64,000 bases of DNA from Candidatus Woesearchaeota archaeon (GCA_016935095.1 JAFGRO010000076.1:15030-79029); one strand, 5' to 3'. Positions 52,884 to 56,504 are shown, counted from the stretch's first letter. Notes: generated from the sequence alone by a model not told the origin. Translations and numbers: made by a program.

Positions 52884-53084
52884 TTAGAACTTCTTAAACA
52901 TGGCAGCCTCATCCAGTAAATCCACATGGCCGAGGAAGGCTGTCCTGCAGCAGTATCTTTCTAAACCAAGTTCATCCAGAGCTTTTTGTATATTCTTTTT
53001 TTTATTCTCGGTTTTAATTAAGAAATCTTCCCATAAATGGGCAATTGGCTTTCCGCAGCTCCAGCACCTCACAGGAATAATCAT
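52884..53084 (-). CDS. rpoN: DNA-directed RNA polymerase subunit N (RpoN/Rpb10)
   Basis: MIIPVRCWSCGK ... LGLERYCCR zinc-bundle signature. The ORF-track N-terminal extension was rejected; start at the internal Met (53082-53084). Confidence 0.8.
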   Translation of the reverse strand: MIIPVRCWSCGKPIAHLWEDFLIKTENKKKNIQKALDELGLERYCCRTAFLGHVDLLDEAAMFKKF

Positions 53085-53142
53085 CGTGTTCTGCTGAAAA
53101 TAAGATTTATTTATAAATCTTTTTAAATTTCTAAGTCTAAAC

Positions 53143-54342
53143 ATGTTTTTTAAAATCACACATAAAAACAATGGTTCAAGAGCACGGACAGGTATTCTGG
53201 AGACACCGCACGGTAGCATAGAGACACCTGTTTTTATGGTTGTAGGCACAAAAGCAACTGTAAAAGCACTTGATCCCGAGGATCTAAAGAAAATCAAAAC
53301 TCAGATTGTTCTTGCAAATACTTATCATCTAACGCTTTCTCCTGGAGAAAAACTAATCAAAGAGAAATTCGGAAGCATGAGGGAATTTATGAGTTGGAAA
53401 GGGCCTATGATAACGGATTCCGGTGGTTTTCAGGTATTCAGCCTTGGATTTGGAATGGAGCACAATGTAGGTAAGCTTGGAAATATTTTTCCGGCTGAAT
53501 CTGTTTTTAAAAATAAGACAGCAGAAAAACAGGAAAAATATGCAAAAATTGATGAAAACGGAGTTTCATTTAAATCTCCGATTGACGGGAAAAAACACAG
53601 ACTGACACCTGAAACCTCAATTAGGATACAGGAAGACCTTGGAGCAGATATTATCCTTGCATTTGATGAGTGCACGTCTCCTTTGCATGACCATGAATAT
53701 ACTGAAAAAGCCCTTGAAAGAACCCACAGATGGGCAGAGCAATGTATTAAAGCGCATAAAACAAAGCAAAGATTATTGGGCATAATTCAGGGCGGTGCTT
53801 TTGAGGATTTAAGAAAAAAAAGCTCAAAATTCATCTCTTCATTAGATTTTCCAGGCTATGCAATAGGCGGCTCTCTTGGAAACTCAAAAAAAGACATGCA
53901 TGATATTCTTGAATGGTGCATACCTAATTTACCTGAGGAAAAACCAAGGCATCTTCTTGGCATTGGAGCAATTGAAGACTTGTTTGAATGCGTGGAAAGA
54001 GGAATAGACATGTTTGATTGTGTCTCTCCTACAAGATTGGCAAGATCCGGTTATTTATTTGTTTCTCCGACAGAAAAAGGCTCCAGACAAAACAAATTCA
54101 GGATAAATATAAAAAACTCTGCAAACAGGACATCTGCAAAGCCAATAGATAAAACATGTGATTGTTATACATGTAAGAATTTTTCAAGAGCTTATTTAAG
54201 GCATCTATTTGCAAATAATGAACTGTTATATCATAGGCTAGGAAGCATACATAATTTGAGGTTTATCCTGAGATTGATGGAAAAAATCAGGGAATCAATA
54301 AAAAAAGACAAGTTCACGGAATTAAAAAACAAATGGCTCTAA
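53143..54342 (+). CDS. tgt: tRNA-guanine transglycosylase (catalytic TIM-barrel domain only; short arcTGT/QTRT-like)
   Basis: DSGGFQ, the catalytic Asp region, and the zinc site CDCYTC...H. Confidence 0.8.
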
Positions 54343-54974
54343 TCTTTAGAATACAATGGTTTTCCAGGCACTAAATAAATCATCCAGAATGTCAACAGAG
54401 TAACAATGGCTTTTACTAGTATATTGCTCAAAAACATTATAAAAAGAACCTGAAAACTCAATAAACCGCCAAATGCAATTACAGGAAAAATAAGGCTGTC
54501 AACAGGAATTGATATGGCATTAGAGATAAATACTCTCATCCACTGGGGCTTTTTCTTTCCTATTCCATTGGTCCACCATTGATAAACTTCTGTATCAATC
54601 AATTCAGAAGCAACTTCCGCAATAATAGAGGCTATTACAATTCTTGGCACCAAGCCAAAAATAAATTCCCATGCAGATTGACCGCCTGCAGAGGCCCATT
54701 CTGTTTCCGGAGGCAGCTTTATTACAAAGATGAAGTATAAGGCCATTATAATGTTTATAATCCCTGCAAGAATAATTGCAGTCTGTGCAGCTTTTTTTCC
54801 CAGCTGCTTATGAATCAAATCACGCCAGGTAAATGTTAATGCATAGATAATTCCTGCATCCATTATAAATCCAAATATATTTATGACTTTGCTTGCAGCA
54901 ATATCAGCTGTCATCTGCAGGAAAATATATACTCCTGAGAGAATTATAGCTACTTGAGTTTTAGATAGTTTCAT
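54339..54974 (-). CDS. yhhQ: YhhQ/DUF165-family 7-deazaguanine (queuosine/archaeosine precursor) transporter
   Basis: 6-7 TM. Motifs resemble YhhQ (…ADIAASKVI…[10 protein letters not shown]…RDLI…G). Convergent with tgt and overlapping it by 4 nt. Confidence 0.5.
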
Positions 54975-55127
54975 TTAAATAAGGAAAATTGTGATTATTT
55001 AAAAAAATTTTTAAATTATGAACCCTTAATAAATTTAAAGAGGTGATTATTTATTGCTAAGTTAAAGAGAATAACTCTGGTAATCCTTTATTTATTAATC
55101 TTTTTAATTAGTATATTTCTTATTTTT

Positions 55128-55391
55128 TTGGTGAGATCCACCATTAAAAATAATGGAATATCCTCTGTTATAGTAAATATAGATGAGTTCTTTAAAGAAA
55201 AGGATTCAGTAGCTAAACCATTTATAATTATTTTATTGACAGTTCTTTTTATTGTGGCAGTTATGAGTACAATTTTGATGTATATGAACTATTTTGTCCT
55301 AGATAACCCTAACCTGGAAAAAAGAATAATCAGAGACCTGAATAAAGAAGTCAGGGAACTGAATAAACAAAGTAAAAAAAGAAACAAATAA
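55128..55391 (+). CDS. Small single-TM protein with Lys/Arg-rich C-terminus, 25 nt upstream of the RelA/SpoT-like gene (possible partner or antitoxin)
   Basis: 87 aa. The TM helix is FIIILLTVLFIVAVMSTILMY. Confidence 0.35.
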   Translation: MVRSTIKNNGISSVIVNIDEFFKEKDSVAKPFIIILLTVLFIVAVMSTILMYMNYFVLDNPNLEKRIIRDLNKEVRELNKQSKKRNK

Positions 55392-55416
55392 GAATTAATA
55401 TTCCCTTCTAGTATTC

Positions 55417-56433
55417 ATGACTGAAAAAACAAGCCTGGGAGAGGTAATTGTTGATAGTGTTGAACTCAGGAAACTATATGAATTGAGAAAACCCAAATAT
55501 GAGAGACTTACGGATTTAGTCTATCTAATATTGAATTCCTCTCTGGAAAGAAACAACATAAGAATACATTCAATGAAAAAAAGAGTGAAAGATTATTCAA
55601 GTTTTCTTGAAAAGGTTGAAAGAAAGAGATATAAAGATCCGTTTTTACAATGTACGGACCTGGCAGGATGCAGGATAATGTGTTTGTTTCTTTCGCAAAT
55701 AGAACAGATAAAAAAAATAATTAATGAAGAATTCGAAGTTATTGAGATAAGCGACAAAAAAACCACAAAAAAATTTGACCAGTTCGGTTATTTGTCTTTG
55801 CATATGCTGGTAAAAAGCCCTAGAAAACGACTAAATTTAATAGAATATTCAGAGCTTAAAGATTTGGTTTGCGAGATTCAGATAAGGACGATACTACAGG
55901 AAGCTTGGGCTGAAATTGAGCATTACCTGAATTATAAGACTACAAAAGAAGAGAGAAATGAAGATCTGCTTAGAAAGATTTTCTCTTTGGCAGGGATGTT
56001 TGAAGTGGCGGACTCAACATTTGAAGATATCCACAAAGGCTTTTCAAAGCTCATCACAAAAAGACTAGCGGGAGATAAAGAGACAATTACAGGTCTGAAT
56101 CTGTTCAAATTTTCCCAAACCTATTTTTCATGGTATAAGCAGGAATGGAATAAAGTAACAGAAAGAGCATTTTATAAACTGAGCAATGAAATAAAAAAGA
56201 TTAATATTAAATCAATAAATAAAATAAAAGCACTGCTGGAAAAATATAATTCAGAGCTTAAAAAATATGAGCTTTATCACAAGGAAAAAGAAAAAAAAGT
56301 CGAATTAAGATTTTTTTCTCCGGTTGGGTTAATAAGGGCAGCGCTTGCCTTGGAATATGGGAAGAAATTTGATTTGATATTCGGGTTGAAGGGATATAGT
56401 GAGAGAGTTAGGAGAGAAACTGAAAGTGGTTAA
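55417..56433 (+). CDS. RelA/SpoT-type nucleotidyltransferase (small alarmone synthetase / toxSAS-like) with ~150-aa C-terminal extension
   Basis: Synthetase-domain motifs RVKDYSSFLEKVERKRY ... CTDLAGCRIM ... FGYLSLHMLV ... EIQIRTILQEAWAEIEHYLNYK. Confidence 0.65.
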   Translation: MTEKTSLGEVIVDSVELRKLYELRKPKYERLTDLVYLILNSSLERNNIRIHSMKKRVKDYSSFLEKVERKRYKDPFLQCTDLAGCRIMCLFLSQIEQIKKIINEEFEVIEISDKKTTKKFDQFGYLSLHMLVKSPRKRLNLIEYSELKDLVCEIQIRTILQEAWAEIEHYLNYKTTKEERNEDLLRKIFSLAGMFEVADSTFEDIHKGFSKLITKRLAGDKETITGLNLFKFSQTYFSWYKQEWNKVTERAFYKLSNEIKKINIKSINKIKALLEKYNSELKKYELYHKEKEKKVELRFFSPVGLIRAALALEYGKKFDLIFGLKGYSERVRRETESG

Positions 56434-56504
56434 GTTATTTATTTTTTTAGTCAATTATTTCAAAAAATTGAACAAATTATAGAAAATTCATCAATATTGA
56501 CCAA

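Follow-up and report, generated by a model that had tools for sequence, protein, structure and literature searches.

A split between the S9 and rpoN genes, probably ancestral to a Woesearchaeota subclade, that holds bacterial-type genes

Results and Discussion

Interruption of the S9-rpoN junction

Is the interruption of a conserved archaeal gene cluster in a single genome a recent event, or a trait of the lineage to which that genome belongs? The question is raised by a 64,000-nt stretch of DNA from a Candidatus Woesearchaeota archaeon (GCA_016935095.1, JAFGRO010000076.1:15030-79029), which was analysed as a whole and is called the window below. In the canonical cluster, S13-S4-S11-RpoD-L18e-L13-S9-RpoN-RpoK-(eno)-S2, the gene for ribosomal protein S9 is followed by rpoN; in the window, the S9 stop and the rpoN start are separated by 3,420 bp (53085-56504) with four genes inside. 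The evidence presented here indicates, with a probability that we put at roughly 0.8, that this split is ancestral to a clade and stably inherited, and that it is not a recent insertion.

Upstream of the gap, the cluster is intact. The genes for S13, S4, S11, RpoD, L18e, L13 and S9 are contiguous on one strand in the canonical order (56505-60109, minus strand), and the S9 gene (56505-56918; PF00380, 2e-32; NF001749, 158.9 bits against a cut-off of 147) is the last of the block. The free-standing rpoN gene (52884-53084, minus strand), encoding a 66-aa RpoN (Rpo10; PF01194, 1.4e-24; NF003089, 82.7 bits against 79), still lies downstream of S9 on the same strand. Between them, on mixed strands, are a gene for a RelA_SpoT-domain protein (55417-56433, plus strand), a gene for a small membrane protein (mechanical open reading frame (ORF) 55128-55391, plus strand, possible extent 55053-55391), yhhQ (54339-54974, minus strand) and tgt (53143-54342, plus strand), the last two being convergent with stop codons that overlap by 4 nt. 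Compared with the canonical cluster, the window has 3.4 kb and four apparently foreign genes between S9 and rpoN, leuS in the place of rpoK, eno and S2, and what appears to be a promoter of its own for rpoN. The gene calls and coordinates around S9 and rpoN, the interruption itself and the presence of leuS instead of rpoK, 161 bp past rpoN, had all been given in an initial annotation of the window, and they are borne out by the ORFs and by Pfam and TIGR/NF model scores. The downstream part of the cluster is gone from the locus, as had also been read: S2 had no homologue in any part of the window, and rpoK gave no match in a search with approximate query sequences, which is a weak test.

The S9-rpoN order had been described as nearly invariant across archaea. 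As a rough control, six species-representative loci were taken from an S9 search of genome contigs, the closest relatives not being among them. A Micrarchaeota locus with the order S9-RpoN-S2 agrees with the description, and it is the sole one of the six in which rpoN directly follows S9. In the other five, namely four related Thermoplasmatota metagenome-assembled genomes (MAGs; loci L004-L007) and a distant Woesearchaeota MAG (L003), no rpoN was found after S9 in the 0.4-10 kb available, suggesting that the S9-rpoN junction is broken in other archaeal lineages too and that near invariance was an overstatement.

Synteny in related genomes

Relatives were located via the closest Tgt and S9 homologues, whose encoding contigs were examined. 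In three related Woesearchaeota genomes, whose Tgt proteins are 70-73% identical to that of the window, one strand carries S9 and rpoN collinearly, and the RelA-like gene, yhhQ and tgt lie between them. GCA_975960575.1 (locus L018) shows this on one 7.4-kb contig with the order L13-S9, a 282-aa protein, RelA-like protein, a 295-aa protein, membrane protein, YhhQ, Tgt and RpoN; the S9-rpoN gap is 5,307 bp, with both genes on the same strand. On a 278-kb contig of GCA_964441565.1 (CAYTWW010000001.1), S9 (226678-227076) shares its strand with rpoN, which starts at 242377 after a gap of 15,300 bp; this gap contains unrelated genes, an ABC transporter, DUF333 and EamA proteins, the RelA-like protein, LigD, Ku and a ligase, YhhQ, Tgt, a glyoxalase and DinB. 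The third genome, GCA_014729915.1, is represented by two contigs (L011 and L019) in reverse orientation to each other, L019 ending after S9 and L011 after the RelA-like gene, with a 141-bp end overlap that is 100% identical; joined, they place S9 and rpoN collinearly with a gap of about 7,618 bp. The gap therefore spans from 3.4 kb in the window, the most compact case, to 15.3 kb in GCA_964441565.1.

Further genomes share parts of the arrangement. The rpoN-tgt-yhhQ linkage is also present in GCA_018815145.1, GCA_016928835.1 and GCA_043801855.1 (L009, L015 and L017), and the RelA-like gene is kept in the gap in at least five genomes. S9 and RelA-like homologues have accessions two apart on a 328,730-bp NCBI contig (MBN1502559.1 and MBN1502561.1), and they appear to be co-located on contigs of 5,790, 5,522 and 5,903 bp and of 61 kb, as judged from matching size and source rather than from reading the contigs. 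Meanwhile, three relatives have mutually non-homologous genes immediately past S9 (282, 285 and 264 aa), suggesting that the S9-side edge is where new cargo accumulates.

On a rough Neighbor-Joining tree of Tgt, the four collinear genomes are scattered across the subclade, which places the split in the ancestor of a Woesearchaeota subclade. Outside this group the linkage to rpoN is missing: a Tgt locus at 63% identity has yhhQ nearby and no rpoN, and one at 59% identity has neither. Among the 80 Tgt loci listed as matches in a metagenome-contig search with the Tgt alignment, mostly bacterial and 44-55% identical, no neighbourhood contains rpoN, S9 or the RelA-like gene, and only two contain a YhhQ homologue; these loci serve as a negative control and not as synteny evidence. 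Together, the distant and the control loci show that the linkage of S9 and rpoN to tgt is specific to this clade among the loci compared. The synteny comparison thus upholds the initial annotation in that the arrangement is lineage-specific, and goes against it in that the arrangement is ancestral to the clade, since three relatives keep the same core genes between S9 and rpoN.

Several other genes were observed in the neighbourhoods of these relatives. GCA_964441565.1 (L012-L014, L020) carries a bacterial-style non-homologous end-joining set (Ku, LigD primase-polymerase and ATP-dependent ligase) between yhhQ and the RelA-like gene. Toxin-antitoxin-type pairs (PIN with a MazE-type protein, ParE, and DUF4258 with a MazE-type protein) occur in or near the rpoN-tgt neighbourhood of several relatives (L009, 2642-3159 and 4462-4710; L015, 11325-11905; L017, 3269-3798), one PIN/MazE pair lying between tgt and yhhQ in L015. 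In the same genome (GCA_016928835.1), a 1,214-aa pyruvate phosphate dikinase-like gene near tgt (L015, 13360-17004) contains an intein, as indicated by Intein_splicing and LAGLIDADG Pfam matches.

Spacers and predicted transcription signals

The S9 and RelA-like genes are convergent, and the 71-bp spacer between them (56434-56504), read directly from the sequence, holds a T7 tract at 56443-56449 after the RelA-like stop and, on the minus strand, a T6 tract about 40 nt past the S9 stop. Oligo-T is the usual terminator signal in archaea, and these tracts are putative terminators on both strands. At the other end of the gap, rpoN and tgt are divergent, and their spacer is 58 bp in the window (53085-53142) and 53 bp in L018 (6364-6416). 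In the window it includes a single palindromic TATA-like box, TTTATAAA, at 53110-53117, 26 nt from the rpoN and tgt start codons alike, which suggests a back-to-back promoter for the two genes giving near-leaderless transcripts. Across relatives, TTTATAAAT followed by ATTTCCA about 10 nt before the rpoN ATG is conserved in all seven genomes compared and is a putative promoter of rpoN itself. In addition, a conserved A/T-rich box lies about 25-35 nt upstream of yhhQ. With separate promoter-like elements and mixed strands, the gap would consist of separate transcription units and not of an operon. A scan with bacterial promoter and terminator models was set aside, as the host is archaeal.

A 21-nt sequence, TTTATTTAT[A/T]AATCTTTTTAA, has exactly two copies in the 64-kb window, at 53106-53126 and 55087-55107, both within the gap; one lies in the rpoN/tgt spacer and the other within the coding frame of the membrane protein. 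It was considered as a common promoter of tgt and of the membrane-protein/RelA unit, and this was rejected because the second copy is coding and the motif is not found upstream of the RelA-like gene of relatives. The repeat is probably an A/T-rich coincidence: two matches also arose in 3 of 100 shuffles when up to 3 mismatches were allowed.

Between rps9 and rpoN, Methanococcus maripaludis has a functional internal terminator that reduces rpoN and rpoK expression and whose removal slows growth (PMC10450193). The window is broken exactly at this attenuation point of the Methanococcus cluster, suggesting that the S9/rpoN junction was already a transcriptional seam and hence a plausible place for a tolerated break.

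Origin of the split

The bacterial type of the gap genes and the metagenome-assembled source are what would be expected if bacterial DNA had been misjoined between S9 and rpoN during assembly or binning. However, an independent Logan assembly of run SRR13394437 yields a 4.3-kb contig with the order L18e-L13-S9-RelA-TM-YhhQ-Tgt (TM, the membrane protein) at 99-100% protein identity, so that the S9-side junction is not an artefact of one assembly. This contig stops inside tgt, and the tgt-rpoN junction of the window therefore rests on one assembly together with synteny in six relatives, assembled from different samples, in which rpoN adjoins tgt. The Tgt, S9 and RelA-like proteins of the window are at least 99% identical to NCBI proteins of a Candidatus Woesearchaeota contig of 88,932 bp. 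For both Tgt and the RelA-like protein, every closest homologue carries a Woesearchaeota or Nanoarchaeota label, and GC content is uniform across both junctions in the low-GC window (0.33). A bacterial-archaeal chimera is very unlikely, and we give it next to no weight. The bacterial type of the three identifiable gap genes, and their mixed strands within a conserved archaeal cluster, could also be read as a mobile element or a fresh lateral transfer that placed 3.4 kb into an intact S9-rpoN junction of this genome. This reading, which was that of the initial annotation, does not agree with the three other genomes in which the same genes separate S9 from rpoN at a protein identity of only 60-75%. 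Composition and codon usage are host-like as well: the insert has a GC content of 0.331 against 0.328 for the window, and tgt, yhhQ and the RelA-like gene stay within the spread of 32 other host genes for both GC3 and codon-usage distance. The boundaries, where direct repeats might have marked an insertion, share no direct or inverted repeat beyond chance, the longest shared word of 8 nt being equalled or exceeded in 45% of shuffles; ARAGORN found no tRNA gene across the 64 kb, and among the gap ORFs there is neither an integrase nor a transposase. A recent insertion specific to this genome is accordingly regarded as highly improbable.

The split could alternatively have been held together by selection, with Tgt- and YhhQ-dependent wobble modification, an alarmone or nucleotide pyrophosphokinase and RpoN co-regulated, perhaps from the common rpoN/tgt promoter region, as a growth-rate or nutrient-sensing module. 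The rpoN-tgt-yhhQ adjacency in seven genomes despite many other rearrangements, the one palindromic TATA box that the rpoN-tgt spacer contains in the window as in L018, and the retention of the RelA-like gene all point in this direction. However, the strands are mixed and the promoter-like elements separate; several relatives carry unrelated insertions (DinB, glyoxalase, hydrolase, toxin-antitoxin pairs, Ku/LigD) among these genes, and two have no RelA-like gene within 10 kb. Moreover, conservation among genomes so close can be plain inheritance, and the 80 control loci, none with a RelA-like gene or rpoN and two with YhhQ, give no sign of such a module elsewhere. We therefore consider a selected functional neighbourhood unlikely, although it has more in its favour than either a chimera or a recent insertion.

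We favour an old, clade-level split. In this view, rpoN would have been uncoupled from the S13-S9 unit in an ancestor shared by a Woesearchaeota subclade whose Tgt proteins are about 70% identical or more. The unit would now terminate at the oligo-T tracts after S9, and a conserved TATA box of its own would serve rpoN. The interval would then have become a tolerated site that gained independently transcribed genes of bacterial type. Its conserved core would comprise YhhQ and a bacterial-type Tgt, exchanging G34 of GUN-anticodon tRNAs for an imported 7-deazaguanine base, together with a small-alarmone-synthetase-like pyrophosphokinase, often accompanied by the small membrane protein; each core element would be its own transcription unit on mixed strands, with unrelated cargo on the S9 side in relatives. 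The direction of events was presumably insertion in place followed by expansion, and the gap genes are presumably of bacterial origin. The locus resembles flexible genomic islands in its fixed flanks (S9 and rpoN), its variable content and size and its non-homologous cargo at one edge. In contrast to such islands, it has no integrase, tRNA target or repeats, and its core (tgt, yhhQ and the RelA-like gene) is inherited vertically.

Several points weigh against an ancestral split. In L015 and L017, the 10 kb read past tgt contain neither S9 nor a RelA-like gene, so collinearity does not hold throughout the clade and secondary rearrangements have to be invoked. The genomes were placed by a rough tree of one protein, and all relatives are MAGs, some of them on short contigs. 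The independent rpoN promoter and the S9 terminator are predictions from sequence. Finally, the distant Woesearchaeota MAG without rpoN after S9 (L003) may mean that the break is older and wider than the sampled clade.

Tgt and YhhQ

The 399-aa Tgt is of the bacterial/eukaryotic type. It scores 509 bits with TIGR00430 (cut-off 307) and only 122 bits with the arcTGT model (cut-off 350), and its best PDB matches are bacterial tRNA-guanine transglycosylases (TGTs; 2e-98). Residues D92, D175 and D292 align to the catalytic D89, D143 and D264 of the E. coli enzyme, and C339, C341, C344 and H370 to its zinc ligands C302, C304, C307 and H333; these aspartates and ligands are invariant in 32 DPANN sequences. 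The pocket loop is GGSLGN (residues 242-247) and not the preQ1-type GGLAVGE, being one residue shorter and missing the Glu, and GGSLG is invariant in the window protein and 31 DPANN homologues (n=32). Queuine-salvaging bacterial TGTs have a shortened GG[LS][AS]G loop, while preQ1 enzymes have GGLAVG (PMC11570991). The window loop has the same five-residue length as the queuine type but a Leu at the fourth position. Meanwhile, an insertion of about 31 aa (residues 103-133) is shared across the DPANN homologues and absent from all solved TGT structures. Loop variants GGSF and GGEFG, with long insertions, were observed in Tgt proteins of some non-DPANN metagenome contigs.

YhhQ belongs to COG1738 (Vut_1, PF02592, 4.4e-36 and 125 bits against a cut-off of 27; TIGR00697, 91.5 bits against 51), a family of queuosine-precursor salvage (Zallot et al. 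2017, PMC5372724). From its family and from the tgt adjacency in seven genomes, it is predicted to transport a queuosine precursor (preQ0, preQ1 or queuine). A YhhQ-family transporter beside Tgt is the arrangement expected for 7-deazaguanine salvage, and because of this neighbour the most likely predicted role of the pair is salvage of a 7-deazaguanine base followed by its insertion at G34 of tRNA.

Bacterial queuosine-pathway genes have been described in DPANN archaea, where Tgt is found together with QueA and QueH (Castelle et al. 2021, PMC8204110). The window agrees with those systems in having a bacterial-type Tgt in Woesearchaeota, and differs from them in that Tgt stands with YhhQ; no queA or queH was found among the window ORFs scanned, in a scan that was not exhaustive. 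In the portion of the supplementary tables of that study available to us (PMC8204110), rpoN, Vut_1 and RelA had no match as neighbours of Tgt.

RelA-like protein and small membrane protein

The RelA_SpoT-domain protein (338 aa; PF04607, 1e-22, 81 bits) joins an N-terminal domain like that of small alarmone synthetases to a C-terminal helical domain of about 125 aa (about residues 215-338) that is specific to the clade. The motifs R-x-K...S...K, D-x-x-G-x-R, G-Y-x-S-x-H, E-I-Q-I-R-T and H...Y-K are all present and invariant in 40 sequences. PDB sequence matches are to RelP/RelQ (about 5e-15), which are also the best Foldseek matches of its AlphaFold model (pLDDT 87.9), with an E-value of 2e-10 and a TM-score of 0.72-0.80, normalised to the target, over about 200 aligned columns. 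The protein shares with RelP/RelQ (PDB 6fgj, 6ex0 and 5dec) the RelA_SpoT synthetase fold and the usual catalytic motifs, and differs from them in its length of 338 aa, in the extra C-terminal domain, for which no solved structure was matched, and in its score with the RelQ (YjbM) equivalog model, 73 bits, far under the cut-off of 320. It is thus predicted, on sequence and model grounds, to be a RelA/SpoT-type pyrophosphokinase resembling small alarmone synthetases. Full-length relatives (55-74% identity) were found only in genomes labelled Woesearchaeota or Nanoarchaeota, and bacterial relatives are 45% identical or less, mostly over the N-terminal domain. RelA/SpoT homologues of predicted bacterial origin have been reported in 41.7% of Woesearchaeota (PMC8407392).

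A CapRel-like toxin was considered as another reading of this gene. CapRel, a tRNA pyrophosphokinase, is a weaker fold match (E-value 1e-6, TM-score 0.40) than RelP/RelQ, which are clearly better, and no antitoxin partner is evident, so that this reading was not adopted. The single PADLOC match of the protein is to the candidate model PDC-S33 (1e-14).

The small membrane protein has two predicted hydrophobic helices and was recognised by homology to relatives: in a tblastn search, the 120-aa membrane protein of L018 matched the window with 43% identity over 55059-55358. The frame is open from 55047, has no ATG, GTG or TTG before 55128, and is given 86-87 aa by gene callers; translation may start at ATT 55053 or CTG 55077, or the first helix may have been lost. 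Homologues adjoin the RelA-like gene in L011 and lie one gene apart from it in L018.

Flanking genes

All of the ribosomal-protein block is called on the minus strand: S13 at 59615-60109, S4 at 59028-59552, S11 at 58624-59028, RpoD at 57835-58623, L18e at 57327-57725 and L13 at 56902-57324, with Pfam matches supporting the ORF calls of the last two. The order from S13 to S9 is identical in L019 and in L020. Directly upstream of S13 is a gene for a Hef-type helicase/nuclease, at 60234-62426 in the window and at 4477-6708 in L019, suggesting that the upstream flank of the block is conserved too. On the other side, leuS (49882-52722, minus strand) encodes an archaeal LeuRS (TIGR00395, 1019 bits), and the order rpoN-then-leuS also occurs in L009, L011 and L015, with one gene between the two in L015. 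Elsewhere in the window, two ORFs at 46301-47914 (537 aa) and 36082-37194 (370 aa) have no Pfam match at E-values up to 1e-4.

Significance of the split

The arrangement adds one more case to a known class of events, lineage-specific operon splits with acquired genes. It does not overturn current views, as bacterial Tgt and RelA/SpoT genes in DPANN archaea have already been published (PMC8204110, PMC8407392); in the literature searched, we found no description of these genes inside the S9/rpoN junction, nor of a conserved expandable gap at this place. It indicates that even the most conserved archaeal gene cluster can split and remain split, and that such a split can serve as a tolerated site of gene gain in reduced DPANN genomes. 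The order S9, RelA-like gene, yhhQ, tgt, rpoN also provides a compact synteny marker for one Woesearchaeota subclade.

To our knowledge, a queuine-type 7-deazaguanine at tRNA position 34 is classically absent from Archaea. As a speculative extension, on which we place rather little confidence, the S9/rpoN seam of one Woesearchaeota clade might be a long-lived landing pad that domesticates bacterial genes, where the Tgt/YhhQ pair may give a salvaged queuine-type or an undescribed 7-deazaguanine at this position, alongside an alarmone-synthetase-like enzyme that is specific to the clade and has a novel C-terminal domain. The locus is in this respect a pointer to salvage-type queuosine-family tRNA modification and to alarmone-like signalling in these archaea, and its best lead is that the variant Tgt and YhhQ may together form a queuosine-family modification system in archaea.

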